A stretch of DNA of 64,000 nt from a bacterium (GCA_043812655.1 JBDRLW010000009.1:120-64119); one strand, 5' to 3'; counted from the first letter of the stretch, positions 18,401-35,494 are shown. The notes: a model not told the origin generated them from the letters alone. Numbers and translations: made by a program.

Positions 18401-21400
18401 TTCTGACAGGTTAAAGGCGCGATCGGTAGCGACGATCTTAAAGTATGAGGAACCTGAGAATGAAATTCTCGGTTCCTCATAAACAATTGTATATTCACCC
18501 GCATTTTGCGCTTCAGCGGTTACCAGAGTCGAAATTAAATTACCAGCCAGATCAAACACTGAAACTTCGACCGACGAGTTTTCCGGCAGCTGATATAAGA
18601 GCTTAGCTTGTTTCTTAACATAATCAACCACCAGCGGCTTCGTCGTAATGACCGGCGGAACGTTATCGACTAAGACAGTATTCGTAACTGTCGCGGGATT
18701 GGTGCCATCCGGATCAATTGCTTTAATTTGGAATTCATACGACCCGTCAAAAACACGATATTTGTTGCCAACAGCTGTTGAACCGGTATATTCGGAATTG
18801 AAATCCCCATACCATCTTAAGGCATGTTCACCTTTAGTTTGGACTTCTTCATTGACCAGGATTTTTATCGCCTTCCCTCCCTCGCCAATGATCGCCGCGC
18901 TGACCTTCACATTATCCCTGGCCAGATAATATTTGATCTCGGTAAAACTATTATTCGGATTGACCGGCGCGAAGGGATCAGGTTCGGCGTAGGCGTAAGG
19001 GACAAGAGTTGGTTCGCGGTCGACGACCAGTGGATCGTGAAGCGTGAAACGTGAAACGTTGCCGACATTGTCTACCACGGTCGCTTCTACCGAGTAAGCC
19101 CCCCCAATGAGCTCGTTGCGTGAGCCGCGGCCATCCCATGTCCAGGAACCGAGAGACGAAGAGACGAAAGGACGAAGGGACGATTTATCCGTCGGATAAT
19201 AAAATCCTTCCGTCGGCCCTTCGTGGCTCCTAAACTCTCTCCTCGTCTCTCGTCCATCGTCCTTCGTCACTATCGTTGTTACATACGCCGGCTCGCTAAA
19301 CTTGTACCAAATCTTAGTTGTATCTTTGACACCATCATCATTGGGAGTAAAGGGATTGGGATCGGCATTGAAGCCAATGATTGTTGGCGGTGTGGTATCA
19401 ACAACAGTTTGGCTGATTACATTATTACTAATGTTTCCAGCCTCGTCGATCGCGTAGACCGTGGTAGAGTAAGCTCCGTCGGCCAGGTGTTCATTTAATG
19501 ACTTACTAGTCACAAGACTCCAATCTCCAGTTAGAGTATCTCGGCGATATAGATTAAACCCATCTTTTATCCAAGATAATTCAACTTCTTTGTTGGCTTC
19601 AGCTGAAATCACCTCATCCACCACTCGACTCGCTTCGCTCGCTCGTGGTCCCCCTTCTCCACTTCGTGGAGAAGGTCGAATATTAAAATAGATTTTCCCC
19701 TTCTCCGAACTCCTAACTCCATACTCCACACTATCGTACTTCCCGTCGCCGTTGGGGGAAAAGGCAAAGAGATTTTGGCTAGCTTCGACAGACGGAGCGA
19801 TGGTATCTTTGACGATGGTTACATCACTAATCGTCCTGATATTCTTATCTTTTTCTAAATGGGAAGAGACAAATATATAGTTATTCCCCTCTTGCAATAA
19901 GTTAACATTCTCAAACTTAAAGTTGCCGGCAGCCGCCTCCGCCGTCAACCGCGCGAAATACGGTTCTTCCTTCGCGGGATCTGGAGGCAAATTCTCTGTT
20001 TTAACATATAAGCTAAGAACCGATCCTGGTTCAGCTGTGCCATAAATCGTCACCTTATCTTTATTGGTTATATAGTTATCCGCAAAAACCATTGGGGCAG
20101 AAAGGGAAAATTTGCCGGGCAACAGCGCGTAAGTAGAAAAATGGTCGAGCGGAGCGTAAAAGGCGTATTGGTGTTCACCGTTATTGATTTCCACTTCCTG
20201 CTTATTCCCAGAAACGATCTGCAGATCACCGCCAGCAGTCACTTGATGGATATTCATCGGCAAACCTAAGTTTGTCCCTGGATTTGGCAATGGTTTATTC
20301 ATATCCCAAAGCCCTAGTTTTGGATCGGCTAGGTCGTCAAACGTGTAAACAAAACGCAAAGTCGGACGCTGGTCTACTCCTTCTAATGTACTTGCCCCGA
20401 GCGAAGTCGAGGGGCTGACCGTGAATTTCCAGGGGGAAGGCTTGATCTCCACTATTGGTCCGGATGTCATGATGATCGGCCGGTTACGAATAAATATCTC
20501 GCTCATCGTCACTGGTGTAATCGTCACCAATTTATCTTGGCCAAACGCCCCTTTAGGAAAACTTAGTTCCGCCCGTTTATAAGTACTGTAAACCTGGCCG
20601 CCTGTAGCATCCCTAACCAGCGTTCCGATCGAAATATCTTGGGTAGAAATAAAACTACCTGACCGGAGTAAAACCGTATACTGTCCATTTAACCGTGAAA
20701 CATTCCACCAGGCTAAGCGCCCGTTTTTACCAGTATCGGATCGTTCAATGGCCTGCCAGGTCTTACCGTCAAAATACGATAATTCGTACGGTTCTGACGC
20801 TGATCCTTCGATCTCAACATAGCGAGATTCAGAAGCATCGAGTTTAAGTTTGAGGGTAAAAGTATCGTCCAGCCGCCGGCTATTTTTATTGATCTTAACC
20901 AGCGCGAGATCCCTATTATCACCGCCGGTCTTATCTTTAATATTTATTTCCCAGCTATCAATCACTACATTAGGATTATCAATGGGGGTTACCCCATCAT
21001 TTTTAAACGGATCATATTTTAAAAATGCATATTTTAAAGCCGAGGCTGATTGGTAATCAGGGCTGACTTTGTAAGAGTTAGCTATTTTGATTTCCCGCTT
21101 GCCTAAAAACTCGTTCTCATTAAAATCCAAAGCCATACTATTTATCTTACCGGCCAAAGGCTGTAAAGTATTATCATCACCTGTTGTCCAGGCAACTCCT
21201 ATTGTGTCCAAATCCTCGGCTCCATACGCCGTATTCTTGTCACCGCTCGCGGGATTTATTTTAATGCCAGGAGTATTACTGGCAACCTGATAATTAACAT
21301 CACTAACATAATTTGGAACTTTTAAAAACTGGCCAAAGCTTTGGCTCGCGCTCCAAATACTCTTCCCAACTCCTTTATCAAACCTCACCTGGCCAGTTCC

Positions 21401-24400: not shown

Positions 24401-27400
24401 CAAGGGATATGAGATGACCGGCGCTATCCCATCTTTAACGCATGAGGCGTAAGCGATCCCAACGTTCCCATAATCATCTTCGGCAATGATCTGGAAACGA
24501 TAAGCCCCCTTAGGTTGGTCGCTCCCATTCCAAGCGACATTATTAGCTGCTGTGTTGGAAGCTGGCGCCGAGGGGATCGTCTCCACTAATTGGCCAGTAT
24601 TGGAATTATAGATCTTTATTTTTACGCTTTTTGCGTCTGTAAGGCTGTAAGAAAGATTAGTTTTGTAGGAATTATTCCCTATATTTGATAACACATAAGG
24701 ATTGGTAATTTGCCCGAATATTGAGGGCGGCGTCCGATCGATCCGGACAGCTTCAAGCGTTCGCGGCAGGCTTTCATTACCCGCGTCGTCCCTGGCGATC
24801 ACTTCTACCCGATGGAGGCCATCTTCGGGGCCTTTAGTGAACATGTCGTTGTATTTCCAGGTGTAGGAAGCGAGATAGTTAGGAGTTGGGAGTTCGAAGT
24901 CCCTCGACAGTGCTCGGGGTGGCTGGGATGGCGAGCTTGTCGAGCCATTCGGAGCCGGAAGGGATTGGGCAAGATACGCTGTTGTTGAATTAGTTGTTAG
25001 ATTATTCAGTTTAATAATAACCGTCGATTTTTCGTTTACCTTCGCGGTTAATCCTAGCTCCGTAGTATTGGAAGTCATTGGATTGGGTGAAACGTCAACA
25101 CCTAAAACTGTTGGCGGCGTAGCGTCGATCGTGATCTGCGTCTGGCTGGTTACGGAGTTTCCAGCTAGGTCGGAGGCGGTAATTTTAATTATGTAATTAC
25201 CGTCTACGACCCTCACCCCTGTCCCCTCTTCGCCACTCCAGTTGAAAAAGTTTTCCCCTTTAGAAATCGAGTCGGTGGTGGCGATAGTAGTTACAAGTTG
25301 GTCTTCGGTCTGTGGTCTTTGGTCTGTAGTTTTGTAGAGTTCGCAACGGACAGAGGCGAGGTTTGGCGAGGCTTCGTCGGAAGAAGTGTATTTGATAATC
25401 GCAGGCGCCCTGGGAGAGTATGGTTGCAACGGCTGGATCGCCAGAGTTGGCGCTTGGGTGTCGATAATAACATTAATAACCGCTTGCGAGACGCCAACGT
25501 TACTATTAGCGGTCACAACCAACGAATATTCGCCATCGGGCAATGTTTCTTTTGGTGTATATTCAAAATGAAGATGTTTATCATAATCTCCGCCGCTGAT
25601 CGTCGCCTTCACGTCCGAGGTAACATCAACCTCTTCAGTCCCATTGATCATTTTAGCAGTTGTTATTTCCAGCCCGTTTATCGCGTCTTCGCTGTACGTG
25701 GCTAACCCAAAATCACCGCTAAATGCTGGCTTATTATTTTTAGTATACGTTCCAGGGAGCGGCTTAAGGTTGGAGGCTACAAATGGGATGGTGTTAAGTA
25801 TTATCTTTAAAAGCTGGTTGGAGGTATAACCGACTTTGTTTTTTCCACGGAAAGCAAGGACGTTCTGGCCTTCTGCCAGCTTCAAGCCATCGACACTAAA
25901 ATGTCCCCATTCATCTATATTGGTAATGTTTTTCCAGGCGGCAAAGTTTTCCGAATACTGGAAATACTGCATTTTCTTCGGCATAAAGTCGCGCAGGACG
26001 CCTTCTATTTTAGTTGGAGCCTCTTTAACAGTAATTGCAGTAATCTGCTGGTTTTTCCCGTCGATCACTACCGGTAAAGCGGTCGGATCTTTTCCGGCAA
26101 AAGTATAGCCTTTAACCTCTACGGTATGGGTTGTGCTCAAGGTCGTTATTTTCCCATCCGCTTCTTTTGTTTGGTTAGTCAATAAAACTAATGCTTGCGG
26201 CTTAACAGAGGAGGTCGTTGATGAACCAACGTCTGGCTTATCGAATAAGGCTTGTTCTAATAAGCTGGGATCGCCATCAAGGACTATTTTGTCTTTCATG
26301 GTGATATGAGCAAACATAAATCCCAAGGCTCCATCCTCCTGATCAACGGTAGCAAAATTAGCTACCGCCGCGACAGCTATTCCAATATAAGTAACCGCTC
26401 TGACCGGAGCAGGTAAAAATTGGAACGCAATATCGAGGCCTGCAGGGATGATATGTTCCAATGCCCCCAATTGCGGGCTTCTCATCGTATAGGTAAATCG
26501 TTTTGCATTGGCTAAATTAGCAATCCCTTCCCCTAATTGACTGGATCTCTCTCCCACCAAATCACCGTCACCGAAAAACGGATAACCGGTTAACATTGTA
26601 AAATATGATCCCATAAATCTGCCTTCAAAATTGTCTAGTTCGGGATTAGCAAAAACATTGGCTATACTCGCCATCATTAAAGATATGGGGTTCAATCCCA
26701 CTAAAAATGTTCCCGCCTGATTTAATCTCCAGGGAACGGGCACACCTCTTCCGGCAATTAGACGCTGTTTAACCGGTGTATAACTTCCGAAATCCGCAGA
26801 ATTTAAATTTCGTATAAAATCACTATCCGGCAGTAAATCCATAAGAGCAGGTGACTTATAACGATTCATAAAAGCACGCACCCCGGCATTAACGCTTGAC
26901 GAAACAAGACTATACGCGCCGACAACAGCAAAATATTTGGACAACTCGTCATTGCCATTCATCGCGTAATAAACAGATAACCCAATTCCTCCCAGAAAGA
27001 CTACTCCCTCGTAGAAATGTATTTCCTGTGTATTTCTGGCATAAGAAGCCCCACCAGCTCCCGTGTGCGGAGTATCTATCGTAATAAATTTTTCAATATC
27101 ATCTTGATAATACCGATTCCCCCGCTGGTCTTTACCATACATATATGACATGACTGCGAGCCCCCCCATGGAGTGCCCAAGAACTATGAATTTTTTGGGG
27201 ATCTCGTTGTCAGGGCCTGTTGAATCAATTGGAAATCTTTTTGGTTTACTCAAACTACCTGGCCCATAATCATGGAACCATATTTTAAAATCTTCTTTTG
27301 CTTGTTCAAGCCAGCTATTACCAGTTCCATTTTGACCATTATCTAATCGTTTAGTAATTTCCCATGGTTTTCTTTGGTTCCCATTATCTCCGATATCATC

Positions 27401-27706
27401 ATTTTTTTTACTTACTGCCTCTGGGTTATTATATGTTCGATCACCAAATTCCCAACCCTCTTTTTCGATATTGAGAAATTGATTGGAAAACTCATATCTA
27501 TAAACATATCCATTAAGACCTGCTTCTTTTGTTAAATAATCATACACCTTATCAAAGCACTTATGGTCATCGCCAATACCATGAACAAGTATTATTAAAT
27601 GATTTTTTGCATAGGCAATATCATTATTATCAATCGCACCGCAGGCAATTGAAGCCGAATAAATCAAAACCAGTATTAAAAATACAGAAAATCGAAAACC
27701 CTTCAT
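12494..27706 (-). CDS. giant secreted multidomain surface protein (5,070 aa)
   Basis: Uninterrupted 15,213-nt ORF with an N-terminal signal peptide, an alpha/beta-hydrolase head, many Ig/FlgD-Ig-like modules, FG-GAP repeats and a C-terminal sorting-type domain. Its ATG overlaps the stop of the upstream gene (ATGA). Confidence 0.85.
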   Translation of the reverse strand: MKGFRFSVFLILVLIYSASIACGAIDNNDIAYAKNHLIILVHGIGDDHKCFDKVYDYLTKEAGLNGYVYRYEFSNQFLNIEKEGWEFGDRTYNNPEAVSKKNDDIGDNGNQRKPWEITKRLDNGQNGTGNSWLEQAKEDFKIWFHDYGPGSLSKPKRFPIDSTGPDNEIPKKFIVLGHSMGGLAVMSYMYGKDQRGNRYYQDDIEKFITIDTPHTGAGGASYARNTQEIHFYEGVVFLGGIGLSVYYAMNGNDELSKYFAVVGAYSLVSSSVNAGVRAFMNRYKSPALMDLLPDSDFIRNLNSADFGSYTPVKQRLIAGRGVPVPWRLNQAGTFLVGLNPISLMMASIANVFANPELDNFEGRFMGSYFTMLTGYPFFGDGDLVGERSSQLGEGIANLANAKRFTYTMRSPQLGALEHIIPAGLDIAFQFLPAPVRAVTYIGIAVAAVANFATVDQEDGALGFMFAHITMKDKIVLDGDPSLLEQALFDKPDVGSSTTSSVKPQALVLLTNQTKEADGKITTLSTTHTVEVKGYTFAGKDPTALPVVIDGKNQQITAITVKEAPTKIEGVLRDFMPKKMQYFQYSENFAAWKNITNIDEWGHFSVDGLKLAEGQNVLAFRGKNKVGYTSNQLLKIILNTIPFVASNLKPLPGTYTKNNKPAFSGDFGLATYSEDAINGLEITTAKMINGTEEVDVTSDVKATISGGDYDKHLHFEYTPKETLPDGEYSLVVTANSNVGVSQAVINVIIDTQAPTLAIQPLQPYSPRAPAIIKYTSSDEASPNLASVRCELYKTTDQRPQTEDQLVTTIATTDSISKGENFFNWSGEEGTGVRVVDGNYIIKITASDLAGNSVTSQTQITIDATPPTVLGVDVSPNPMTSNTTELGLTAKVNEKSTVIIKLNNLTTNSTTAYLAQSLPAPNGSTSSPSQPPRALSRDFELPTPNYLASYTWKYNDMFTKGPEDGLHRVEVIARDDAGNESLPRTLEAVRIDRTPPSIFGQITNPYVLSNIGNNSYKTNLSYSLTDAKSVKIKIYNSNTGQLVETIPSAPASNTAANNVAWNGSDQPKGAYRFQIIAEDDYGNVGIAYASCVKDGIAPVISYPLDDNTEVAGTISIRGTAIDPDWTNDKPFKDYRVYYRKGTSSTPLPLGEGTGVRVDGWQSDFIEVPQTNRDPQGPKNISIRPLQNNSTLAYLYTNNLANGDYTIKVEVNEENGETLSATRTVKVNNDSFTTSSLQNPYVKLNPVLSSVEFKGDDSVKLPLGFINSIKPANIYIEIIKPSRPSPRSGEGGPRASEASRVVDEAVVFSKYFPNIAGAPFIGKPDYKPGADLGYFIWSDDAGYHLRWSSNGSNHKFTGSIIAIGGELKNINAVNCSPSTTNALISWDKTMAGGESGIDFKISSGQIMITPKIDEDPTSPSITADNVYLGISKYSQTYLPIIIDAASQKLVDVTSMGKTSPTPNSELNTPNSLEWNGQYDTGAYVDNGTYIVRVRAEGADGVGMATDEAIVQVKTPFELSNLKVEPLDRKFSALGGIDRVSVFYNVSKDSIVTATVQKQNGDYVATLLNGTEVLGTTNPNNQLTFAWKGNYPDPDSGLVVPGGTYKIKLNVAAKDGSASETKEIDNITLAEFKNDAKIVSLSPIGENGIAQGDSPYYFEAKGLGWYHPPKDFSYTLTATGKQLITAYPFVPFAGLMHRGFKQVDINVEVLATVYYTKYNYVFLQGWKGEGQRTTKQHVQTFSLTSNIPSIEVKQIYDVLQFHDAALRGVGEPDGHVDKIDLTLVFRPAGDLTWVLDVVTIEANPAVSSILGKVNYPITALINGVFQVSTTTDDPAVASSYLGASQIATLSSSVPKYLVGTPEISEKGIFKVTPTWGTDGRSFGRSPYFTLTYQLEAPIAYSRLTNRFVPWFGFISAKTPESERTKDFSMYLTDINKGLGFPGKLFFTDPTAKPSAPYKDLKTDLQGKKNWGDLVAALNSEAQKSNLIGYKDSLASSVGYDSYLSGEYFEFIPITKPESGDFTETSSSTIKINTNLTYASGGNPPSPFEFSWPLTDQNKYDDIWKAKKAELLANPQKYTGTSPAGTWWELDADEVRARLADANNSRTGTGQVRFDKGVGKSIWSASQSFGQFLKVPNYVSDVNYQVASNTPGIKINPASGDKNTAYGAEDLDTIGVAWTTGDDNTLQPLAGKINSMALDFNENEFLGKREIKIANSYKVSPDYQSASALKYAFLKYDPFKNDGVTPIDNPNVVIDSWEINIKDKTGGDNRDLALVKINKNSRRLDDTFTLKLKLDASESRYVEIEGSASEPYELSYFDGKTWQAIERSDTGKNGRLAWWNVSRLNGQYTVLLRSGSFISTQDISIGTLVRDATGGQVYSTYKRAELSFPKGAFGQDKLVTITPVTMSEIFIRNRPIIMTSGPIVEIKPSPWKFTVSPSTSLGASTLEGVDQRPTLRFVYTFDDLADPKLGLWDMNKPLPNPGTNLGLPMNIHQVTAGGDLQIVSGNKQEVEINNGEHQYAFYAPLDHFSTYALLPGKFSLSAPMVFADNYITNKDKVTIYGTAEPGSVLSLYVKTENLPPDPAKEEPYFARLTAEAAAGNFKFENVNLLQEGNNYIFVSSHLEKDKNIRTISDVTIVKDTIAPSVEASQNLFAFSPNGDGKYDSVEYGVRSSEKGKIYFNIRPSPRSGEGGPRASEASRVVDEVISAEANKEVELSWIKDGFNLYRRDTLTGDWSLVTSKSLNEHLADGAYSTTVYAIDEAGNISNNVISQTVVDTTPPTIIGFNADPNPFTPNDDGVKDTTKIWYKFSEPAYVTTIVTKDDGRETRREFRSHEGPTEGFYYPTDKSSLRPFVSSSLGSWTWDGRGSRNELIGGAYSVEATVVDNVGNVSRFTLHDPLVVDREPTLVPYAYAEPDPFAPVNPNNSFTEIKYYLARDNVKVSAAIIGEGGKAIKILVNEEVQTKGEHALRWYGDFNSEYTGSTAVGNKYRVFDGSYEFQIKAIDPDGTNPATVTNTVLVDNVPPVITTKPLVVDYVKKQAKLLYQLPENSSVEVSVFDLAGNLISTLVTAEAQNAGEYTIVYEEPRISFSGSSYFKIVATDRAFNLSEVTTETFSVVPNQFQVSSNAAPNPFTPNADSLSDQTRISYNLAGGVGPYKVSLTILNAAGATVKRLVDNEQQTAGSYSFYWDGKDDGRKTIDDGRYECVISIQDMLETIHESRLTIHAISTRPTVDISTDIPIFSPNGDGAKDKVIFNYSINYPTFYITGEALVKIEVINSSAEAVWSKIFNNSAGNYVYEYNGLNSYDLPASPAGGPLNPGSYYVKISAQDALGTTAIPKIIPLEVDYSQPEPTDFSINTAYAKLDAEMRVKLNFPEPLAETPTVEVTMSDGTLKTAGLITAEGNNYEYSYIVLTEDAEGPAAVSVKARDLAFNPVLKTKIVTIDKTNPVVSNLSVAPNPAAVPAVNGQASIKFNVSEPLKEAPKVYVTQNGASPQLIPVTGLWSSVSGLCEAKYDVVPGYDGLAQVSIEVADLALNPALFTTSFEVDTVKPVFNNIKSEIGDNPEFTKFAKEGAEVLITFDSSEQLKFNPSVKVNEETAMFSRRFTGQTTEAYEYKYVIKNTDANGNANITISGFDFALNEGTVETSTSSESFVIDLVNPTIAIAEPQIVGAYISNPQSFSTNANPDGTDKPRSTTFYYNLAEKSKVTVKVYKVPDNQATYTKTDFNNDNLIKVLINDVWQEGNQTVAWDGKIDNNLATYDDNNDSYAMPGKYAFIVEGRDRANNLTLKKWGGTVWIQDNILTLREPEQFEYDAAHVNPGGNNPDPHYISPNGNSLDPAQKQAKYYFMIDLASNPTITKPAEKIEAQAVAGDTKKVGKYSIKVYSDSAMANLIRTVVANADAQSGTLTWEFWDGKNDAGQFVTDGTYYMVVDVKDFAGNSAVNNILKRTVVVDNEKPVISNLSAAPYYFSPGNTNSSIKTTTLTYEVADNGNSCEVTVAVYKGANLTKTLFGGWENNGTYLQVWDGTGDSVVDGPYTFKLSSTDQAGNIADIQTKEVVVDMTGPLVVLGGQAEEVWYSADNNITVSLSDNYSYQGFKWSWDDPPSTDPAGCNTSATGTTTHSSQGPRTLYVNAWDSAGNLTQTSKIYKRDYTPPTATFSGQAADAWYISDNQITISLSDTGGSDYRGFKWSWDNWPTNDPAGCNTATSASTTHASTGPRTLFVRVWDNAGNQTTYSKTYCRDPIRPSVYTPSTTTPTTNRRPTWSWAPSSDSLSGIDGYYIQIGTTSGGGNIVSETWVGNVNAWTTNRDLSSGTYYASIKAKDVAGNIGNWGSSGSVLIDLDSPVISSVSVSPNAISPGNADGNYDSITFSASANESSTFSVYVDGGLKYTSSPSINLSWTWSPGANISEGSHNYYIVAVDAVGNSSTSSTYSFTVDNTPPTINDIAFSRNIAFPDGINNSTTINCNVSGATRIDLEIRDAGGNVVRSFPNVGAEVNWDLKNNSGSFVPVGRYSALATVNDALLNVATLTATKKVRVKSRDEAIMIDDNSGANEYVRVIKVAKDGKSFNSASYWNTSVDWMLFTTLVDYQGNEKPMFVALRNQANDDVVIYDPRNRTASPLYSFDVPEDARLTGGDFNGDGVEELAVVNPANSWVYIYSLPSGTLVKSFKGYGNEIAAGDLDGDGMDELAMTIQNSLAVYLFKPSSIADGSAGNNSYRNWNTPRNVKTITCGDFNGDGIDEIALDGPIATIYVGWVNYVYTYNNSGTLINSFSFQDPSNEFFCITAGDFTGDGKAEIALMSGGAGEWMGIFKPMTGERLAFHWLDGSGCWRPSGGDVDGVYDFTTAYAVTRSPITHSITFEAPTLVAPTDKTDNVQSVRPTFEWKHKKGNATEYRIDVAKNDTFSIANQSFTKSPNSGSQDKADSTLYYYNYSIHEFDPGLDRDTYYWKVTALSTNEAATSETWSFTVKPDLTLSDVTNYPNPFNPNKEKTKIRYRLSTDASDVRIRIYDITGSLVNEIDGTTNGEGSSIWNKYNDVEWDGKNGRGDMVMNGIYPFEVTARIGDRSVGGRGKVAVLK
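12497..12811 (-). other. C-terminal FlgD-Ig / T9SS-type-A-like sorting domain of the giant protein
   Basis: LSDVTNYPNPFNPNKEKTKIRYRL...VRIRIYDITGSLVNEI...VEWDGKNGRGDMVMNGIYPFEVTA...GKVAVLK-stop. Confidence 0.6.
13200..13900 (-). other. FG-GAP/VCBS-type repeat region of the giant protein (probable beta-propeller)
   Basis: GGDFNGDGVEELAVV, AGDLDGDGMDELAM, CGDFNGDGIDEIAL, AGDFTGDGKAEIAL and SGGDVDGVYDF. Confidence 0.7.
18052..18083. repeat. heptamer array CGTGAAT-type inside the giant CDS
   Basis: cgtgaatcgtgagtcgtgattcgtgaatcgtt. It shares the 19-mer cgtgaatcgtgagtcgtga with 11231-11249 and is translated as ...SRLTIHAIS. Confidence 0.85.
19612..19678. repeat. 67-nt hairpin-containing repeat, copy A (in frame in the giant CDS)
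   Basis: cctcatccaccactcgactcgcttcgctcgctcgtggtcccccttctccacttcgtggagaaggtcg. It contains a 10-bp perfect stem, ccttctccac/gtggagaagg, and encodes RPSPRSGEGGPRASEASRVVDE. Confidence 0.9.
23803..23869. repeat. 67-nt hairpin-containing repeat, copy B (in frame in the giant CDS)
   Basis: Same unit with 3 substitutions; it encodes the same 22-aa peptide. Confidence 0.9.
26807..27604 (-). other. alpha/beta-hydrolase (lipase/esterase-like) domain of the giant protein
   Basis: HLIILVHGIGDD at aa 36-47 and the nucleophile elbow GHSMGG at aa 177-182 (nt 27161-27178). Confidence 0.7.
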
Positions 27707-28560
27707 TTCAGTTGTTTTATATTGCTCCCATCTATATTAATTAGCCATACGCCATTACTTCTGAATTGACCATAAACTATTTTATTTGCTCCAGGATTGA
27801 TTTTAGGTAAATATCCTCTAAAATTCGATATTTTAGCGTGAAACTGAGGAGTTGCTACATTCACGTCAATATATCCATATTCATTTCCAGCGCTCCCATA
27901 AATTTCATTTGTTGCGATTGAAGAAACGGTCGCACTACTTATGCTCTGGTCTCCCAAGTTGGTTCTTCCTGTTCCATCAATATTTATAATAGCCGTTGGA
28001 GTATACAAACCATCTAAATATTCAAAAACAATTTTAGTCCCATACTTCCATGTAACAGCCTCTCCACTTGTTGCAATATTCAAATTTCCTGTGCCATCAA
28101 TATTTATCACATTAATTCCGCCGCGGTTTTTCAAATACACTAACCTTGCCTCATCCGGTCCCCAATCAAGAGAACTAATACTTTCAGTCGTTGGAGAAAA
28201 CTCATAAACCTTAGAATTATCAGCTCTTTTATAAATTGAAATAGTTTCATCACTGATTAAAGCAGCATAAGTTCCTTTGGGCGAAAAATATGGATAGCTG
28301 CTATATGGCAGAATGGCTTCATTGTCCCCATCAGTATCCATGGTCACATAAGAATAATCTGTTCCAAGGGTTATTGTTCCCATCGGTTCCTTACGATAAT
28401 GGGTGACAGCCTTCTGACAGTAAATTAATCCCTCCGGCGTCCAATTTGGATATTCGTAGCTTGTTTCATCATAGTAACTTGTTCCACACCCCCCCATCAT
28501 CATCATTGTTAACCCCAACACCATCAGGCCTAGGATCGGAAGAAACTGCTTCGTTTTCAT
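27703..28560 (-). CDS. lipoprotein with TolB-like (PD40/WD40-like) beta-propeller repeats
   Basis: Signal peptide plus lipobox MMMMGGC. Repeated SP(K/D)G...INIDGTG / INIDGSN motifs are present. ATGA overlaps occur at both ends (28557-28560 and 27703-27706). Confidence 0.6.
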   Translation of the reverse strand: MKTKQFLPILGLMVLGLTMMMMGGCGTSYYDETSYEYPNWTPEGLIYCQKAVTHYRKEPMGTITLGTDYSYVTMDTDGDNEAILPYSSYPYFSPKGTYAALISDETISIYKRADNSKVYEFSPTTESISSLDWGPDEARLVYLKNRGGINVINIDGTGNLNIATSGEAVTWKYGTKIVFEYLDGLYTPTAIINIDGTGRTNLGDQSISSATVSSIATNEIYGSAGNEYGYIDVNVATPQFHAKISNFRGYLPKINPGANKIVYGQFRSNGVWLINIDGSNIKQLK

Positions 28561-29039
28561 CTTAAACTCCTTTCTTTTTTAATGTTACCTGAAGTTACAT
28601 GAGGTTGCGAGATGTTGCGGGAGGTTGATTTGATGCTCCCCCTTGGATTTTTCCAGGTTCCATCACGTTCCATCTTACTAAGAGAAACTACATATCTTCC
28701 TGCCATATAATCAGCGCTCTGAAATAATACCGCTAGCTTTTCAAACTCTTCCTTTGTTATTAAACCATCTTCCAAGCAGTCCTCAATATCACCTCCTAAT
28801 TCTTCGAGCGAACCCAAACTTATGTTGATACTGTGTCTAAATTCGCCAGCAGACCCCTTTTTATACCCCTCTCTAATGTTTTGTTTGGCCGATCTTGCGG
28901 CATCCCTCATCTGTGAGACAAGCCTTAAATGCGTTTTCTTGAACCGCTCTGAGCAGTTATAAACCAATCGTCGAATTTCACAAATATTTTGGTAAAACTT
29001 CAATTTCTCGTACGCCGCTTCCTTTTTCAGTAACTTCAT
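28557..29039 (-). CDS. four-helix-bundle protein (23S rRNA IVS / Avd family), second copy
   Basis: YEKLKFYQNICEIRRLVY...LVSQMRDAARSAKQNIREGYKKGSAGEFRHSINISLGSLEELGGDIEDC. The start codon region and the last ~35 codons are built from flanking word repeats. Confidence 0.75.
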   Translation of the reverse strand: MKLLKKEAAYEKLKFYQNICEIRRLVYNCSERFKKTHLRLVSQMRDAARSAKQNIREGYKKGSAGEFRHSINISLGSLEELGGDIEDCLEDGLITKEEFEKLAVLFQSADYMAGRYVVSLSKMERDGTWKNPRGSIKSTSRNISQPHVTSGNIKKERSLR

Positions 29040-29087
29040 GTAACTTCAATTAACCTAATGTAACTTTTTGTAACATGATTTGTTTTT

Positions 29088-29252
29088 TGATTTATTGAGC
29101 GGCTTTTAATTGTTGTCTTTTGTGGCAGCAACCTAATCATCACCCTGATCCCCCTTGTTAGAAAAAATGCGTCCAAACTTTGCAAAGCTATTAAGGATTT
29201 TTATGTCCCCTAGGGTATCTGAGCTTATGTTATATTTTAGCATGATTTAAGC
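29088..29252. repeat. direct repeat copy A flanking the KilA-N gene
   Basis: taatcatcaccctgatcccccttgttagaaaaaatgcgtcc...tattttagcatgatttaagc aligns with 30171-30289. The shared gattt(at)tgagcgg lead-in carries an indel. It holds a 36-codon minus-strand ORF at 29133-29243. Confidence 0.85.
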
Positions 29253-29261
29253 ATCCTGACT

Positions 29262-30077
29262 TCATCCCTTCCCTTCCAACCTTTTTACTTGTCTATTCTC
29301 TGTTAGTAGTTTCATTTGTTGAATGGCAATTTTATTAAGCTTCTTTAATCTTTCTCCTTGTGAAAGCCCCTCAGTAATAAATAATGCGTTCAGGTTTTCA
29401 AGATTTGAAAGGCATACCAGCTGCGAGACTTCAGCATGATCCCTAATGTTCCCCTTATTCCCTGGATTTTTAGCGCGCCAATCTCCGGCAGTTACGCCAA
29501 ATATAGCCATATTCAAGATGTCGGCTTCGGAGGCATATATATTATTTATCTGTGCCGTTGTCAGCTCCTTAGGTATTAGGTTTGCCTTTATAGCATCGGT
29601 ATGTATGTGGTAGTTTATTTTAGAAAGGGCGCGGGGTAAGTCCCATTCTAATTTCAAGCGATTGTTTTCATCTTCTTTTAAGCGTTGAAATTCCTTAATA
29701 AGATAGACCTTAAACTCCGCGCTAATCCACATGCCAAAATCGAAAGCAATATCCTTATGGGCATATGTCCCCCCGTATCGTCCAGCTGTCGCCTTCAATC
29801 CAATCGCGTTGGTTTTTTCAACCCACTCCTTAACGCTAATTTTATAGTTGTTCAAACCTGCCTGGCTTTTAATTATGGCGAATTCGCCGTAATTAAAATT
29901 GGGATTAAAAACACTCTCCCAAATACCAAGAAATTCAACAGTATTCCTGTTCCTAAGCCAATCAGAAATGAAAAACTCGCCGTCTTTCGCCTTTAGCATA
30001 TCGGTCAACGAAATATAGTCGTTGTTATTTTTCTTATAATAAGCGATCTCGATGCCCAAAACTTTTAATTTATCCAT
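29262..30077 (-). CDS. KilA-N domain-containing DNA-binding protein
   Basis: YISLTDMLKAKDGEFFISDWLRNRNTVEFLGIWE...GRYGGTYAHKDIAFDFGMWISAEFKVYLIKEFQRLKE is typical of the widespread KilA-N family. Confidence 0.8.
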   Translation of the reverse strand: MDKLKVLGIEIAYYKKNNNDYISLTDMLKAKDGEFFISDWLRNRNTVEFLGIWESVFNPNFNYGEFAIIKSQAGLNNYKISVKEWVEKTNAIGLKATAGRYGGTYAHKDIAFDFGMWISAEFKVYLIKEFQRLKEDENNRLKLEWDLPRALSKINYHIHTDAIKANLIPKELTTAQINNIYASEADILNMAIFGVTAGDWRAKNPGNKGNIRDHAEVSQLVCLSNLENLNALFITEGLSQGERLKKLNKIAIQQMKLLTENRQVKRLEGKG

Positions 30078-30151
30078 AATTCACTTCCTGTCCCTCACTT
30101 TAGCCAAAGATTAAACCAGCAAATACTTGAGAAGCAAAAAGAATAATAGAC

Positions 30152-30289
30152 GATTTGAGCGGTAGTAAACTAATCATCACCCTGATTCCCCTTGATAGAA
30201 AAAATATGTCCAAACATTACAAAGCTGTTAAGAATTTTGAAGTCCTCTAGGGTCTCTGAGGTTGTGTTATAATTTAGCATGATTTAAGC
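30152..30289. repeat. direct repeat copy B flanking the KilA-N gene
   Basis: Roughly 85% identity (by eye) to copy A over the 119-nt core. It holds the paralogous 36-codon ORF at 30170-30280. Confidence 0.85.
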
Positions 30290-30317
30290 CTTTTTTACCC
30301 ACTATTTTTTACTTCTT

Positions 30318-31574
30318 TCAGAACAAATACGCCAAAGAAAAAGTCTGTGTATTTCCGCCACTTATTGTCGATCCAGTCGTCAAACCAGTCGGTCCTCCCA
30401 CTCCTCCACCCTGCTCATCTTTTTCAGCTAATACCGGTACTATTTGTTTAAAAGAATAATTCAATTCCATCGTTTCATTGATCTTGAAAGTTAATCCCAT
30501 TTTAAATTGAGCATAATCGATCCTTCGATAAGGGAAAGCAAGGCTCTGATCTAACATATTAGCCATGCCAAAAAAGAAACTGTTCCAAATATTTGTTTTA
30601 CCATCGAGTGACATATTAATATAATCTAAACCACTATCTAAGGTTAATCGGTCAAAAATCATCCGTTTCAATCCTAAATGACAACCATTAACTGACATTT
30701 TTGAGTCTAAATCGACCTGTTTGTTCACATTACCAACACTGGCTAATAATTCGGGAGAATTCTCAAAAATCGTACTTCCAGATCCCTGAAGAGAAACCTC
30801 ACACCTACCCAAGTTAAAAATAACGTCATAACCTTGGTATTTGAATGCCGCGCCAACAACTCCAAAATAATTACGGCTATCACTCCCATAATAAGCGGAA
30901 TTGTTGTTTTGGTCATAAATATTAAACCCCCTGATGTCGCACTTTCGTCCAATCTTCCCTAGAAAAACGACCTTATCGTTAATGCTTCGGTTGTTTTCAA
31001 TTTCAAATTTTTCTCCGTGGCCATAAAGATCATCATTATAATTGGAATACTTTATTGCCAGATGTTTGTCGGGTCTTACATCCATGAAATAATGATAACC
31101 AAGATTTTTACCTCTTTCTAAAACCGCATTTTGATCCTGGGTAACACCCATGCCGACAGCAAAGTAATTAGATAATTGGGTATTATAAGAAAGATTCAAG
31201 CTATTATTCTTCCCACTGAAATTAAAATTCTTTCCGTCTTTATTTAAGCTAATAGTAGAAGTCCCCTTTAAACTTGATATTTCCAAGGCGCTTTTACCAA
31301 TAAAACCACCATTTTCAATAGGTAAACAAACATTTACACTGGAAGACGCATCGTTTAAATTTATTGCCTCACTCTTAACAATATTATTCTGTTCAAAGGA
31401 ACAGTTCGCTTTAGCACTTTTGTTTTGATCTATATAATTGACATCGGAGCTTATGGTCCCATCCCAGACAAATAGATCCTCCAGGACTGCCTTCAGGATG
31501 GTCGTCCCGAAGGCAGCCGGAGTAATTACTAGAACAAACAGTAAAACAAATGCTAGTCTAGTACGTGTAAACAC
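30318..31574 (-). CDS. outer-membrane beta-barrel protein (unknown family)
   Basis: Signal peptide ...TPAAFG, Asn/Ser-rich alternating strands and a C-terminal ...FSLAYLF (terminal Phe, typical OMP signature). GTG start directly after the upstream stop. Confidence 0.55.
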   Translation of the reverse strand: MFTRTRLAFVLLFVLVITPAAFGTTILKAVLEDLFVWDGTISSDVNYIDQNKSAKANCSFEQNNIVKSEAINLNDASSSVNVCLPIENGGFIGKSALEISSLKGTSTISLNKDGKNFNFSGKNNSLNLSYNTQLSNYFAVGMGVTQDQNAVLERGKNLGYHYFMDVRPDKHLAIKYSNYNDDLYGHGEKFEIENNRSINDKVVFLGKIGRKCDIRGFNIYDQNNNSAYYGSDSRNYFGVVGAAFKYQGYDVIFNLGRCEVSLQGSGSTIFENSPELLASVGNVNKQVDLDSKMSVNGCHLGLKRMIFDRLTLDSGLDYINMSLDGKTNIWNSFFFGMANMLDQSLAFPYRRIDYAQFKMGLTFKINETMELNYSFKQIVPVLAEKDEQGGGVGGPTGLTTGSTISGGNTQTFSLAYLF

Positions 31575-32639
31575 TTAATTTACTAGGGCGCTCCAATCAG
31601 CAGCAGTAGTCATCCCCGGGAAAAGGCCATTGATAGTAAAATCATAGCCCGCTGGACAACCATTCATGGCCCCATTTATATAAACCTTCAAATCGGCAAT
31701 TGGCGCGGTGTAAAACGCCTTTAAATTAACAACTATGCTCTTGGTTGAGGAAAGATCAATGGTCGTAGCCCCATTTTCAAGAGAATTTTTTATTTTCCCA
31801 ATATATGTTACCCAGGTGGTTTTTTCCGATGGGTTAGTATATTTAGGAATAAGGTCATCCGACTGATCATCGGTTTCAGCGTCAATATAGTTTAAACCGT
31901 CGATCCATTTGGCCATCATTCGGGCATATGCAACTCTGGCCGCTTCCATATTGACCGCGCCATCAGCCTTTAATTTGGCAAACCCCTCCTCACTTAATGG
32001 GTTGGTGGTCGTGTAATCCCAGCTGTAAGCGATCGCCTCATGCAATGCCGCTTTCAAAAAACTCCCCAGCATATCTAAAGCGTATATTTCGCCCAGATCC
32101 AACTCGCGATCCATGCCGGTTTTTGTCATACTGGCTTTTAAAATATATTTAAAATTTGGATCGGATTCTACTATTGCCAGCCGACCTAGAGCGATGTCAA
32201 GTTTTGGAATAAGGGTATTTTTTATATAAACCTGGACTTCCTCTGGCGTTATTTCTACCGTTGTCGCGGTTTGAATATACGATGAGAAATTTACCGCCTT
32301 AGCCCCAGATGATGTCGACATGAAGGAAAATAATTCATTAAGAGTAGACGGCGCATTCCCTCCTGCTTTTGCCACCAGAGTCCTTGTGCTATCATCCACC
32401 GCTACACCTAAAACACCAAGCATGGCCGCGCCAAAATTTGCCTCGGAATTTGTTGGATCAGCTGCTAAAGCTTCATTATAGGCTGTAGCCGCGCCGTCCA
32501 GATCTCCGCTCGACAACTTAGTGCTAGCGTCACTCAATTCTTTTGTGACATCAACTGGAGTATTTTTTCCACAACCAGACACAGAAACAATCAACAAAAC
32601 AACAAAAATCAGACTAAACAAATAACTACGTAATTTCAT
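31575..32639 (-). CDS. lipoprotein, helical (TPR-like N-terminus)
   Basis: Lipobox VSVSGC; GDLDGAATAYNEALAADPTNSEANFG resembles a TPR unit. Confidence 0.55.
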   Translation of the reverse strand: MKLRSYLFSLIFVVLLIVSVSGCGKNTPVDVTKELSDASTKLSSGDLDGAATAYNEALAADPTNSEANFGAAMLGVLGVAVDDSTRTLVAKAGGNAPSTLNELFSFMSTSSGAKAVNFSSYIQTATTVEITPEEVQVYIKNTLIPKLDIALGRLAIVESDPNFKYILKASMTKTGMDRELDLGEIYALDMLGSFLKAALHEAIAYSWDYTTTNPLSEEGFAKLKADGAVNMEAARVAYARMMAKWIDGLNYIDAETDDQSDDLIPKYTNPSEKTTWVTYIGKIKNSLENGATTIDLSSTKSIVVNLKAFYTAPIADLKVYINGAMNGCPAGYDFTINGLFPGMTTAADWSALVN

Positions 32640-32702
32640 TTTTATCCTCCTTATTTATGACATAACAAGAAACATATATTTAATCAGGTCCACCTCCTTT
32701 AT

Positions 32703-33419
32703 TTAATTGCCTTTTTTCAATTCTCTACTCGCCTCTGAAGTCACTTGTTTTGATTCGACTTCAGTAGTAGTTGGCACAACGACGTGCAGTGTTACAGGCT
32801 GGCTCTTAATAAAGTCTTCTTTGTCTGCCACATATTCATCATAAGCCTTTTCAATGTCAGACTTCATGATATATGACATTGCTCCTAATCCGGCATAAAG
32901 CAAGCCAACGCCACTACTGGCAGATAATAATCCAACACCTACCAAAATGCCTGAGGCGATTGTTCTCCCTTGCTGAGCCTCTTCCGCTCCTTGTTTTAAT
33001 GATTTTTCGGAAAAAGCTTCACGAGCCCCTCGTTCATCAATATTTGATGATGCCATCTGTCTTATCTTATTGTAATTGTTTTCAAGTTCTGTCGGAAATA
33101 AATAACTCCTAATCCCTATTATGGTCATGCCCGCACCCAGACCATAAAACATCGATGAAGTATTAGAACCGGACGAACTATTTGAAAAAGACGACCCCAT
33201 TGAAACATAAAGCAACCCCAAGCCAACCCCATACATAGCGCTTTGCATCCTCGCCTCTTCGGCTTTCTTTGCAAAATCCTTCAGACGACTTTCCGCAGAA
33301 ACAAACGTTTTCTGTGCCGGCACAACAATATAATTATTTTCTGCTATACTCACAGAAGTAATCGCCATCGTGAAAGATACAACTAAAAAACAAGCAACAA
33401 TTTTCTTTATCATTTTCAT
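32703..33419 (-). CDS. secreted/membrane protein with Gly-rich hydrophobic segments
   Basis: Start chosen at MKMIKKIVACFLVV, with AAGGAGG just upstream; an ATG 6 nt further in is equally possible. The track ORF begins at 33458 and would overlap the upstream gene. Confidence 0.5.
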   Translation of the reverse strand: MKMIKKIVACFLVVSFTMAITSVSIAENNYIVVPAQKTFVSAESRLKDFAKKAEEARMQSAMYGVGLGLLYVSMGSSFSNSSSGSNTSSMFYGLGAGMTIIGIRSYLFPTELENNYNKIRQMASSNIDERGAREAFSEKSLKQGAEEAQQGRTIASGILVGVGLLSASSGVGLLYAGLGAMSYIMKSDIEKAYDEYVADKEDFIKSQPVTLHVVVPTTTEVESKQVTSEASRELKKGN

Positions 33420-33426
33420 CTCCTCC

Positions 33427-34029
33427 TTAAAAATTCTTCGATTGTAAAACTGATTCAATTGTTGATGTGCTTGAGTTCGTTTTCACGATCCCGACATTAT
33501 CGCCAAGCCAGACATTGCTCGATGTTTCAATCGTCCCATATTTAGTAATCATAGATATTTTGTAACAATCAAATGTTCCCGCTGGCACAGTCACATTCTC
33601 TTTTGCCGTGACCATGATTTTATATGAATTCGCCCCAGAAGTTGTTTCCATCCAGGTTTTTCCAACTTCCAATGGAAACGCAAACATTTGCATACCGGTA
33701 GAATAATAATTGCTGGGCGACCCATGATAATAAACCCCCGTGCCATCAACCCTGTAATATGCGTCTGAAGTCATAGTCGAGTTAGAAGTTGACATATACT
33801 TTGAAGAAATCTTTTGAACTGTGATAGAACCAATTGAAGTTGAGCCCTCTACCGACGTAATTTGGGTATATCCATCATTGCTAGAATAGGTCCAAGTATA
33901 CCCTTGGTTACAAGGGAAATAGCTTACCCCTCCACCACTACTCTGCGTCTGCAAAACCGAACACCCAGAAACAACCAACATGAACATAACAAGACTTAAA
34001 GAAACCAACACCATTTTATTATTTAACAT
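33427..34029 (-). CDS. lipoprotein (unknown function)
   Basis: Signal peptide plus lipobox LVVSGC, with AGGAGGAAG upstream of the ATG. First gene of the four-gene operon. Confidence 0.6.
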   Translation of the reverse strand: MLNNKMVLVSLSLVMFMLVVSGCSVLQTQSSGGGVSYFPCNQGYTWTYSSNDGYTQITSVEGSTSIGSITVQKISSKYMSTSNSTMTSDAYYRVDGTGVYYHGSPSNYYSTGMQMFAFPLEVGKTWMETTSGANSYKIMVTAKENVTVPAGTFDCYKISMITKYGTIETSSNVWLGDNVGIVKTNSSTSTIESVLQSKNF

Positions 34030-34269
34030 TTTCTTCCTCCTTTTTATTTTATCGTTTAAACTTTGTAGCTGATAATTAGCTCTTTACCTCCTTTTATTCA
34101 TTTAAATTAATGTAAGCAATCCCATTGCCACCTAGTTCAACCAACAATTTGGCGCGTTTTCGCCAAAAGGCAATAAAAAAACGGTTCCTCGATCCCTCGA
34201 TGGTTCGACAAGCTCACCACTCGGGACTCGGAACCGTTAATGCCTTAGTGTATAGCTAATATTTATTAG

Positions 34270-34563
34270 CTATGCCAAATTACCCGCAAACACGAACTGC
34301 GGGTAAAAGCGCGCACCAACAATGTATCTATTCTTTACCAATAACCTTTCTATTTCTATAAGTTCTCGAATGTGGCCTGGAACCTTAATGCCGGCTTTTT
34401 TCAGCCAGAAAATTGATTTATAGGAAGCTTCCGCGATTTTATCGCCGGCAGTTTTTCTGGTCGCGAGAATATAATATAGCAAGGCTAACTCAAAAGCGGT
34501 TGAGGTTTCTTTGGTCAGCAGGTAGCTGACTTTTAAGGCTTTTATTTTATCCCCGAGTTTCAT
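34270..34563 (-). CDS. hypothetical small protein
   Basis: 97-aa ORF only; no motif recognised. Confidence 0.3.
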   Translation of the reverse strand: MKLGDKIKALKVSYLLTKETSTAFELALLYYILATRKTAGDKIAEASYKSIFWLKKAGIKVPGHIRELIEIERLLVKNRYIVGARFYPQFVFAGNLA

Positions 34564-34677
34564 TCTATAAATATATCGTCACGTTTTGTAAATAATTTCA
34601 CTTTTTTACAAAGCAAGTGCCGCTAGGCTCGGGGTATCAAGACTGCCGGCAGGCACGCTAAAGAGGTTAATTAGCTG

Positions 34678-35427
34678 TTATTCTATCTTAAATTCTTTAT
34701 CGGAAAGGCCGCTATTAACTTTAATATTGCTAAATTCCATCGCCACATCCATCCGCCCCATTGGGGTGTTGATAACAGAATTGTTGCTGCATGGGACCCA
34801 GGAACCGCTAACCTTCTGGTATTTAATGTTTGATTGGCTGATCAACTTCCCTTTAAGGTCATACATATTGACCTTGGTCGGCACCCATTGGTTGCTGTCA
34901 ACATAAAATTCCATTTTCCCCAAAAATTTATTTTTTTTCTTCGGCACTCCGGTAACAATATAATCATCACCGTCTTTCTTGAGCGAAAGGTTAAAGAACT
35001 CCTTAGCTTTATCAAGGCTCATTTTCCCCGGATCAGCTGCCCCTTGCCCTCTCATTTTTTTCAGATCTTGGATCATTTTCTGCCCGGTGTCGGAATTAAT
35101 GATCGCCATCTTGTCGCCATTGGTGATGGTAACCTGCTTCATCGGCGAACTGATCTCGATCTTTGATTTATCTTCACCCTTCGTCCACATTTTCCCCCTC
35201 TGCTCTATTTTTTGGGGGCCTTTTGATTGCTGGCCGGGCATTGACATATTTGAAAAGATAACGGTCTTGGTTTCGGCATACATATCTTTGATCTGCTGCT
35301 GGTTGCCCTGGAGTTTACCGATCACCTCATCAAGCGACAGGCCCGCCGCGGCGGGAAGATCAGCAGCAAAGGCAGTGCAACTAACGACTAACGACAAAAT
35401 ACTAACAACAAATAACTTTTTTAGCAT
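34678..35427 (-). CDS. periplasmic LolA-like / outer-membrane lipoprotein-sorting-like protein
   Basis: Signal peptide MLKKLFVVSILSLVVSCTAFA, size and beta-rich pattern; AAGGAGG RBS. The signal-peptide core is encoded by the heptamer array at 35380-35414. Confidence 0.5.
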   Translation of the reverse strand: MLKKLFVVSILSLVVSCTAFAADLPAAAGLSLDEVIGKLQGNQQQIKDMYAETKTVIFSNMSMPGQQSKGPQKIEQRGKMWTKGEDKSKIEISSPMKQVTITNGDKMAIINSDTGQKMIQDLKKMRGQGAADPGKMSLDKAKEFFNLSLKKDGDDYIVTGVPKKKNKFLGKMEFYVDSNQWVPTKVNMYDLKGKLISQSNIKYQKVSGSWVPCSNNSVINTPMGRMDVAMEFSNIKVNSGLSDKEFKIE

Positions 35428-35494
35428 GAGGTCCTCCTTGGGGTATCAATAAAATTATAACATAGGCGAAGCCTTTTGCAACCAACCTACCCTT

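Follow-up and report, generated by a model that had tools for sequence, protein, structure and literature searches.

Positions 30,318–34,029 of a 64,000-nucleotide stretch of bacterial DNA (GCA_043812655.1, JBDRLW010000009.1:120-64119; the whole stretch is referred to as the window, and coordinates are counted from its first letter) are occupied by four co-oriented minus-strand open reading frames (ORFs), in the order g1-g2-g3-g4. This block appears to be a mosaic operon of envelope genes, composed of two or three independent pieces rather than of one machine, and its last two genes were shown to constitute an ancient, co-inherited pair that is self-standing in about ten phyla, with the lipoprotein (g3) always first and the outer-membrane barrel (g4) second. 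As a tentative explanation of the whole, to which we would give somewhat less than an even chance, the block is such a mosaic in which g3-g4 serves as a split lipoprotein/porin conduit for glycans, in either export or uptake. The four genes are:

33427–34029, minus strand: g1, a lipoprotein of 200 amino acids (aa) with lipobox LVVSGC (ORF call and Pfam PF21347)
32703–33413, minus strand: g2, an exported or membrane protein of 236 aa (from the ATG at 33413) with a signal peptide
31575–32639, minus strand: g3, a helical lipoprotein of 354 aa with lipobox VSVSGC and one N-terminal TPR motif
30318–31574, minus strand: g4, an outer-membrane beta-barrel of 418 aa with a GTG start, ending in LAYLF

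The initial annotation of this region, made from the sequence alone, had described four tightly packed, co-oriented genes with these lipoboxes and the LAYLF terminus, which was borne out by the ORF calls, and all four products are indeed envelope proteins (g1 and g3 as lipoproteins, g2 as a membrane protein and g4 as an outer-membrane barrel). Its remark that none of them belongs to a recognisable family held for g2, g3 and g4, but not for g1, which has a DUF3108-like match. The intergenic gaps between g1/g2, g2/g3 and g3/g4 amount to 13, 63 and 0 nt, respectively (with the revised g2 start discussed below), and the stop codon of g3 directly abuts the GTG start codon of g4 (TAAGTG). No paralogues of any of the four genes were found elsewhere in the genome via tblastn.

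g3 and g4 form a conserved gene pair

When the g3 profile was run against a set of genomes that represented each species once, 51 loci were obtained, from Margulisbacteria, Marinimicrobia/Fidelibacterota, Calditrichia, Gemmatimonadota, Eisenbacteria and Ignavibacteria, as well as from TA06, Latescibacterota, Zixibacteria, Cloacimonadota, Lentisphaeria and others, and ORF calling recovered the g3 homologue itself in 44 of these. A g4-family barrel, recognised with an iterated g4 profile, was encoded directly downstream of the g3 homologue in 21 of the 51 loci (with gaps from –19 to ca. +110 nt), and about ten phyla carry the pair. The two genes likewise adjoin each other in the relatives G030, G034 and G055, in G072 (a genome from a different family of the same phylum), and in the closest metagenome locus, L063. 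Moreover, the distances among g3 homologues co-vary with those among their g4 partners (Mantel r 0.80, permutation p 0.0005, 16 pairs), a correlation that shows co-inheritance and not binding. The outer-membrane lipoprotein-barrel complex that the initial annotation had proposed is therefore plausible for g3-g4, given the conserved adjacency, the co-divergence, and a complex prediction of weak support (see below).

Beyond g3 and g4 themselves, clustering of 658 flanking ORFs revealed no neighbour family shared across many loci, and Pfam annotation of 50 flanking genes returned unrelated housekeeping functions. Similarly, Pfam searches with proteins of other phyla (16 homologues of g3 and 17 proteins encoded downstream) brought up no family save TPR motifs and one GH88 fusion, and a fumarase, not a barrel, was identified among the downstream proteins. 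An SSF symporter and an SDR dehydrogenase precede the pair in three loci (L024, L027 and L038), and an SDR dehydrogenase also precedes it in L026; no substrate was deduced from these neighbours, whose NCBIfam names are generic (YdfG-like, sodium/solute symporter).

Structure and relatives of g4 and g3

In line with its initial description as a beta-barrel, the AlphaFold2 model of g4 shows a barrel with 17 strand elements (assigned by DSSP) at a mean predicted local distance difference test score (pLDDT) of 74.9 and a predicted template modelling score of 0.71. Its signal peptide ends in AFG and its last residue is F, and the family alignment features a conserved N-terminal amphipathic helix and a C-terminal motif in which Y.F.Q.IP is followed by a Gly/Ser-rich linker and SGGN.Q..S..YYF. 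Relatives are scarce: g4 had 22 matches, itself included, among 1.84 billion representative proteins, retrieved itself only in a word-index homology search, and its family profile gave no more than a chance match to solved structures (E 0.011).

Foldseek listed generic barrels for g4 (TM scores of at most 0.44), and the structural ranking was obtained with VIA-align, both on this Foldseek list and exhaustively over 48,161 chains. The best matches were PgaA (4y25; Z 22.1, root-mean-square deviation 3.1, 264 residues aligned) and PelB (9h80_M; Z 21.9), followed by BcsC (9b8h; Z 20.9, and another BcsC at 20.5) and CymA (Z 20.5). After CymA came OprB (Z 17.6), while other porins, Omp85 proteins, autotransporters and FadL-type barrels scored at most 17.2. 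PgaA, PelB, BcsC and CymA are all conduits for glycan polymers or oligomers.

The AlphaFold2 model of g3 is all-helical with small beta elements (pLDDT 82.4). Besides this helical character, which the initial annotation had noted, one true TPR motif was detected, the g3 profile matching TPR consensus proteins alone, at positions 40–72. Besides this motif, no Pfam or NCBIfam family matched g3, nor was a convincing fold match obtained (best Foldseek E 0.018; VIA Z of at most 9.0, which is helical-protein noise). The family alignment displays two conserved acidic motifs, ELDLGEIY and AETDDQSDDxIPK, with residues E179, D181, E184, E255 and D257 being invariant. A word-index search returned 22 relatives (g3 included), with the closest homologues at 57–59% identity, and a metagenome scan with g3 returned one short locus. 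In five loci, a GH88 glycoside hydrolase carries at its C-terminal end the g3 core (residues ca. 153–265), in which both acidic motifs lie. These fusion proteins (in L042, L050, L053, L055 and L058) measure ca. 680–750 aa and have no adjoining g4-type barrel.

A possible split conduit for glycans

The marks of outer-membrane targeting present here are lipoboxes, signal peptides and a C-terminal aromatic residue. A published account (PMC9384988) describes PgaA, BcsC and PelB as 16-stranded porins fused to periplasmic alpha-repeat scaffolds, and the alginate scaffold as a separate, lipid-anchored protein, AlgK, that interacts with the porin AlgE. From these fused scaffolds, and from AlgK as a separate lipid-anchored partner, we infer that g3-g4 might be built on the plan of PgaA, BcsC and PelB, namely an alpha-repeat scaffold with a porin, but split over two proteins as in AlgK/AlgE. 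The lipid-anchored, helical g3 would dock on the 16-to-18-stranded porin g4, and the two proteins would jointly make up an outer-membrane conduit through which a carbohydrate polymer or oligomer would pass. A link of g3-g4 to glycans is provided by the fusion of the g3 core to GH88 glycoside hydrolases, and the conserved acidic loops of g3 would be a ligand- or metal-binding site. Transport could run either way, CymA, OprB and chitoporin, which also match g4, being uptake channels.

Several observations weigh against such a conduit. Known export porins sit in synthase operons, and no polysaccharide synthase, OPX protein, modifying enzyme or sugar-catabolic operon was found in the window or consistently beside the pair. 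No TPR or Sel1-like repeat superhelix was matched by g3 beyond noise, its single TPR motif aside, and g4 matched none of the Pfam porin families at E ≤ 0.1, including AlgE and Wzp/DUF6029. The Z gap of 3–4 that separates the glycan conduits from other barrels is at best suggestive, as barrels of equal size are geometrically alike. Furthermore, g4 was found in only three and a strong g3 match in only four of 100 relatives of the host (plus a distant g3 in G072), while in the phylum of L024 g3 was present in 13 of 80 further genomes, a patchiness (4/100, 13/80) that marks an accessory rather than a core function. Finally, prediction of the g3-g4 complex lends weak support to a contact between the two proteins: the median interface score (ipSAE) was 0.32 versus 0.00 for the best control, with at least 7% of contacts agreeing between runs and a partner pLDDT of at least 73, and the mark so passed is reached by solved complexes in 116 of 157 cases and by mismatched pairs in 2 of 215, although with an ipSAE of 0.60 or less only 18 of the 157 solved complexes, and both passing mismatches, reach it.

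Separate, lineage-restricted families of g1 and g2

The g1 protein matches Pfam PF21347 (DUF3108_like) with an E-value of 9.1e-11 and 42.4 bits vs. a cut-off of 27, over residues 139–186 only, and weakly matches the "putative lipoprotein" of PDB entry 4fvs (E 0.006). To our knowledge, no function is known for the DUF3108-like family; a full-text search of the literature retrieved five papers mentioning DUF3108, all of them in the text rather than in title or abstract. The g1 gene, with an AGGAGG 7 nt ahead of its ATG, is present in 21 of the 100 relatives, often as tandem paralogues, and can be considered a DUF3108-like lipoprotein of a lineage-restricted family that is separate from the g2 and g3-g4 families.

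For g2, the longest ORF (32703–33458) begins at a TTG at 33458, but the ATG at 33413 is more likely the true start (yielding 236 aa), because the Shine-Dalgarno sequence GGAGGA lies 7 nt upstream of it. The protein is rich in Ser (13.1%), Gly (8.5%) and Ala, combines a signal peptide with glycine/serine-rich hydrophobic segments, and matches no Pfam or NCBIfam family. Its ten homologues are up to 72% identical and all unnamed, and 8 of the 100 relatives carry the gene. Like g1, it constitutes a lineage-restricted Margulisbacteria family that recurs elsewhere in other gene combinations, and it would be the membrane component of an accessory set accompanying giant surface-protein genes, one of which (see below) lies downstream of the block in the window.

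Some of these combinations are worth describing. In G043 the order is a LolA-like gene, the g2-like gene, the apolipoprotein N-acyltransferase gene (Lnt), a TPR protein and an FlgD-Ig protein; the g2-like gene in this locus (L085, G043:C3) is thus situated between the LolA-like gene and Lnt, a layout that hints that the g2 family has to do with the maturation or sorting of lipoproteins. A cluster upstream of a giant gene is common to two genomes from different families (L080, G002:C6; L092, G036:C4) and encodes a 532–534-aa protein (with fn3 and MAM domains in the G002 copy), a protein combining PEGA with a g2 domain, and a 646–670-aa protein, the N-terminus of which matches CsgG in G002.

Transcription and genomic surroundings of the block

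The host genome is of the Margulisbacteria/Saganbacteria type, its relatives carrying either of these names in public records, and the block is part of a variable stretch that has a LolA-like gene on one side and a unit encoding a beta-propeller lipoprotein and a giant protein on the other. The surrounding features, from upstream to downstream, are:

34678–35427, minus strand: LolA-like periplasmic protein (Pfam LolA_like 6.5e-10, LolA 2.1e-07)
34270–34563, minus strand: orf97, encoding a small conserved protein without a known family and accompanying the LolA-like gene
34148–34236, minus strand: two hairpins with T-runs between orf97 and g1, terminator-like at 34167–34148
34046–34075, minus strand: promoter-like site upstream of g1 (TTATCA, 18 nt, TAAAAT), a consensus match alone
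29107–30289, minus strand: KilA-N domain gene (29262–30077; Pfam KilA-N 8.6e-23) within direct repeats
12494–28560, minus strand: beta-propeller lipoprotein (27703–28560) and 5070-aa giant surface protein (12494–27706), downstream of the block

The second of the hairpins between orf97 and g1, read off the sequence, consists of CGGTTCC...GGAACCG followed by T7, and the hairpins likely mark the end of the LolA-like/orf97 transcript. Because of these hairpins after orf97 and the promoter-like site before g1, g1-g4 probably constitute a single transcription unit of their own; the promoter and terminator scans are to be taken as a layout hint only, with 21 sites in the region vs. a shuffle mean of 21.9. 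In a groundwater RNA library, contigs match 151 nt of g4 and 168 nt of g2 with full identity, a weak sign that these genes may be expressed, DNA carry-over being possible. Two groundwater sequencing runs contain fractions of 0.08 and 0.07 of the sampled words of the region, covering scattered pieces of it, with the uncovered parts being uninformative.

The direct repeats of ca. 130–146 nt that flank the KilA-N gene (29107–29252 and 30144–30289) are 82–86% identical and are the only two copies in the genome; they matched no Rfam family and showed no unusual RNA fold (z-score 0.76). The KilA-N gene looks like a cassette inserted between g4 and the giant unit with duplication of an intergenic leader. 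Copies of orf97 that are 41–58% identical are found beside LolA-like or g1 genes (L080, L082, L096, L105, L121), and in G029 the order is LolA-like, g1 and orf97. The LolA-like gene itself is present in 42 of the 100 relatives and adjoins g3-g4 in L063 and L009; in L063, LolA-like, g3 and g4 follow each other with nothing in between.

The stretch from the LolA-like gene to the propeller gene measures 6.1 kb in the window and 0.7–9.2 kb in other genomes. In G055, g3-g4 is divergent from hldE-TPR-lptC-trxB as in the window, in a setting without LolA-like, orf97, g1 and g2. Since the length of the stretch varies between genomes and G055 keeps g3-g4 without the other modules, the window is best described as a lineage-specific assembly of modules, i.e., LolA-like with orf97, g1 with g2, g3 with g4, the KilA-N cassette, a four-helix-bundle cassette, and the propeller with the giant gene.

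Weighing a giant-protein machine, a lipoprotein translocon and a genomic island

The initial annotation had surmised that the block might serve the neighbouring giant protein, and the four genes, or at least g3-g4, could accordingly be viewed as an outer-membrane machine that secretes, anchors or assembles this 5070-residue surface protein, a possibility that we consider quite improbable. The block does precede the propeller-giant unit in the same orientation, with only the KilA-N and four-helix-bundle cassettes intervening, and G072 shows the same order if these cassettes are disregarded: its g3-like lipoprotein (731 aa) is followed by a barrel of the g4 family (441 aa, E 1.6e-14), then by a propeller lipoprotein and giant-like genes. 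A co-oriented g2 is found at most 10 kb upstream of a giant homologue in four of the eight relatives that carry g2 (G002, G034, G036 and G040; directly adjoining in G034) and a co-oriented g1 likewise in 2 of 21 (G002 and G011), and g3-g4 adjoins FlgD-Ig or sorting-tail proteins in L030 (TA06) and L051 (Cloacimonadota). Nevertheless, when 38 regions upstream of matches to the first 900 residues of the giant protein (34 of which retain a detectable piece of the giant gene) were searched with every gene of the surroundings, g1, g3 and g4 were each found in none (tblastn, 1e-5) and a g2-like gene in two (L092 and L093), whereas the propeller lipoprotein was present in 15, immediately upstream of the giant homologue, and the LolA-like gene in 13, often with orf97 (L086, L088–L090, L096, L098, L100, L102, L104–L106, L108 and L109); the genomes surveyed are related, and these counts are therefore not independent. 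Giant homologues occur in 41 of the 100 relatives, vs. g4 in three and strong g3 matches in four, most g3-g4 loci have no FlgD-Ig-type neighbour (of the 51 g3 loci, 5 have such domains in their flanks), g3-g4 stands without a giant neighbour at 21 loci of other phyla, an outcome that the initial annotation had itself listed as refuting, and no other locus among those examined contains all four genes. The idea of one conserved four-gene machine was thus not upheld, and service to the giant protein finds no support for g1, g3 and g4 and partial support for g2; the genes that regularly accompany the giant gene are those of the LolA-like, orf97, propeller and g2 types rather than the block as a whole. 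An equally improbable reading takes its model from the Slam (type 11) secretion systems, in which a TPR domain and a DUF560 barrel export neighbouring surface lipoproteins: g4 would be a translocon that flips its neighbour g3 to the cell surface, with the LolA-like protein carrying g3 across the periplasm. The strict adjacency and co-divergence of the lipoprotein and barrel genes would fit this, as would the LolA-like gene, which immediately adjoins the pair in L063 and L009 and is not far from it in the window, the weakly supported g3-g4 contact, and, as a lead only, an Atlas feature-search cluster (score 0.94) in which 19% of the members have the Slam barrel PF04575. However, neither g4 (E ≤ 0.1) nor 35 family members matched DUF560 (PF04575) or SlipAM in Pfam, the LolA-like gene tracks giant-type genes rather than g3-g4 and was not seen as a neighbour outside Margulisbacteria, and surface exposure of g3 is itself only hypothetical.

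The block might also be a recently acquired genomic island, with its low GC and GATC content reflecting foreign origin rather than function, which we regard as unlikely. The initial annotation had taken AT-richness and GATC scarcity as consistent with recent acquisition or different selective constraints, and its hand counts were right (1 GATC site in 33001–33600 vs. 14 in 1–600), but the two stretches counted are extremes, 1–600 having a GC content of 0.562. The four-gene region has a GC content of 0.397 vs. a genome mean of 0.453 (standard deviation 0.033; 9th percentile of 800 windows) and a GATC observed/expected ratio of 1.49 vs. a genome mean of 2.46 (8th percentile; raw GATC lies at the 7–8th), and the 8.45-kb stretch 27000–35450 lies at the 0.9th percentile for raw GATC density. 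GATC density climbs with GC across genome windows (r 0.56), however, and once GC is regressed out the four genes do not stand out (z = –0.66, 24th percentile of 409 windows), with 21% of 47 windows of similar GC having as few or fewer sites; the wider stretch is borderline upon the same correction (z = –1.53, 7th percentile of 166 windows). As for tetranucleotide distance, high values are confined to 27.9–33.9 kb (94–96th percentile), and 31.9–35.9 kb is ordinary (62nd percentile). Because the GC-corrected GATC content is unremarkable, recent acquisition cannot be read from composition alone. Apart from composition, an island would agree with the patchy occurrence of all four genes among relatives, the variable length of the LolA-like-to-propeller stretch, the repeat-flanked KilA-N cassette adjoining the block, and the ISL3 transposase adjoining g3-g4 in G030. 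Against it, whole contigs of the same genome are equally or nearly as AT-rich (C14 0.374, C26 0.403, C29 0.406), the giant gene is likewise GATC-poor, and searches around the four genes revealed neither an integrase nor a tRNA target or island-flanking repeats, while in G055 g3-g4 sits beside the same hldE-TPR-lptC-trxB genes as in the window, which argues for old residence.

Two side observations may be added. In G030 (L008, G030:C12, 846–4105), g3-g4 lies beside the ISL3-family transposase and a HepT/MNT toxin-antitoxin-like pair, surroundings that are consistent with g3-g4 being mobile in some lineages. Furthermore, among palindromic tetranucleotides in the whole genome, GATC (observed/expected 2.41), CCGG (2.23) and GGCC (1.84) are over-represented, and GTAC (0.17), ACGT (0.31), CTAG (0.36) and TGCA (0.41) are under-represented, a bias that suggests methylation or restriction pressures.

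Implications of a lipoprotein-porin module

Pairs of a lipoprotein and a barrel underlie much of the known outer-membrane transport and assembly, as in Lpt, Bam, Sus and alginate export. Neither g3 nor g4 has a Pfam family and their lipoprotein-porin module is unannotated, yet the two have stayed side by side in Margulisbacteria and in phyla such as Gemmatimonadota, Calditrichota and Marinimicrobia. If g3-g4 is indeed a glycan conduit without a linked synthase, it would fill a gap at the outer membrane in the handling of envelope polysaccharides by phyla without cultured members, and short OPX proteins with no pore of their own would have in it a candidate partner. A doubtful extension of this is that g3-g4, a lipoprotein with a conserved acidic ETDDQSDD loop and a PgaA-like barrel, acts as a self-contained translocon that moves a glycan or glycosylated surface component across the outer membrane without a synthase operon in some ten mostly uncultivated phyla, and that in Margulisbacteria it was recruited more than once (in the window and in G072) into the gene set behind the giant surface-protein layer. 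For the present genome, the analysis yields a cleaner map of which genes regularly accompany the giant gene.

Comparison with known envelope systems

The systems that pair a barrel with a lipoprotein differ from g3-g4 to varying degrees. SusC/SusD combines a TonB-dependent, plugged 22-strand barrel with a lipoprotein of the SusD fold; in contrast, g4 measures 418 aa, has no Plug or TonB_dep_Rec match, and aligns to TonB-dependent receptors with a Z of at most 12.7, and no SusD-like chain is among the structural matches listed for g3. Components of the type IX secretion system (PorV/PorP-type barrels and a PorW-type TPR lipoprotein) were considered as kin of g3-g4 and dropped, as family searches gave no match. 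With Slam, the pair shares a barrel beside a lipoprotein and a TPR element in the system, but here the TPR motif is on the lipoprotein g3 and not on the barrel g4, and the Slam barrel is a 14-strand DUF560 domain. The g1 protein, for its part, resembles the DUF3108-like lipoproteins (PF21347; structural-genomics entries 4fvs and 3fzx) in scoring above the Pfam cut-off and in its weak match to 4fvs.

Among the sugar channels, CymA, OprB and chitoporin are structural matches of g4 (Z 20.5, 17.6 and 16.5, respectively). In CymA an N-terminal segment acts as a plug, a role that the N-terminal amphipathic helix of g4 could fulfil as well. These channels differ in having no obligatory upstream lipoprotein, and no sugar-catabolic operon is consistently linked to g3-g4.

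Two reports propose the Wzp/EpsX (DUF6029) porins of Myxococcus, which are PgaA/AlgE-like, as the last step of polysaccharide export together with short OPX proteins, which are proposed to need a separate porin (PMC9603273, PMC9601211). Like Wzp/EpsX, g4 is a stand-alone PgaA-like barrel, and the window genome has two short OPX (Poly_export) proteins (G000:C29:58033-59046, 337 aa; G000:C3:48286-49119, 277 aa) with no beta-barrel gene among their neighbours. Unlike Wzp/EpsX, g4 lies away from the OPX genes, which are on contigs C29 and C3, and its constant partner is a lipoprotein; no DUF6029 match was obtained for g4, 18 family members or 17 barrels of other phyla. It is therefore speculation that g4 serves as porin for the orphan OPX proteins, the more so as g4 is far rarer than OPX proteins likely are.

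The synthase-dependent export systems remain the closest comparison. They differ from g3-g4 in their superhelix of ca. 8–19 TPR/Sel1-like repeats, which was not found in g3, and in that no synthase, cyclic di-GMP receptor or modifying enzyme accompanies g3-g4 in the window or among the 50 flanking genes; AlgE, moreover, is not among the 50 best structural matches of g4. The likeness to PgaA, BcsC and PelB lies in the barrel fold of g4 (Z 20.5–22.1 vs. 17.6 for the next family), and that to AlgK-AlgE in a lipid-anchored alpha-helical protein encoded before the porin, the algK gene preceding algE just as g3, with its TPR motif, precedes g4.

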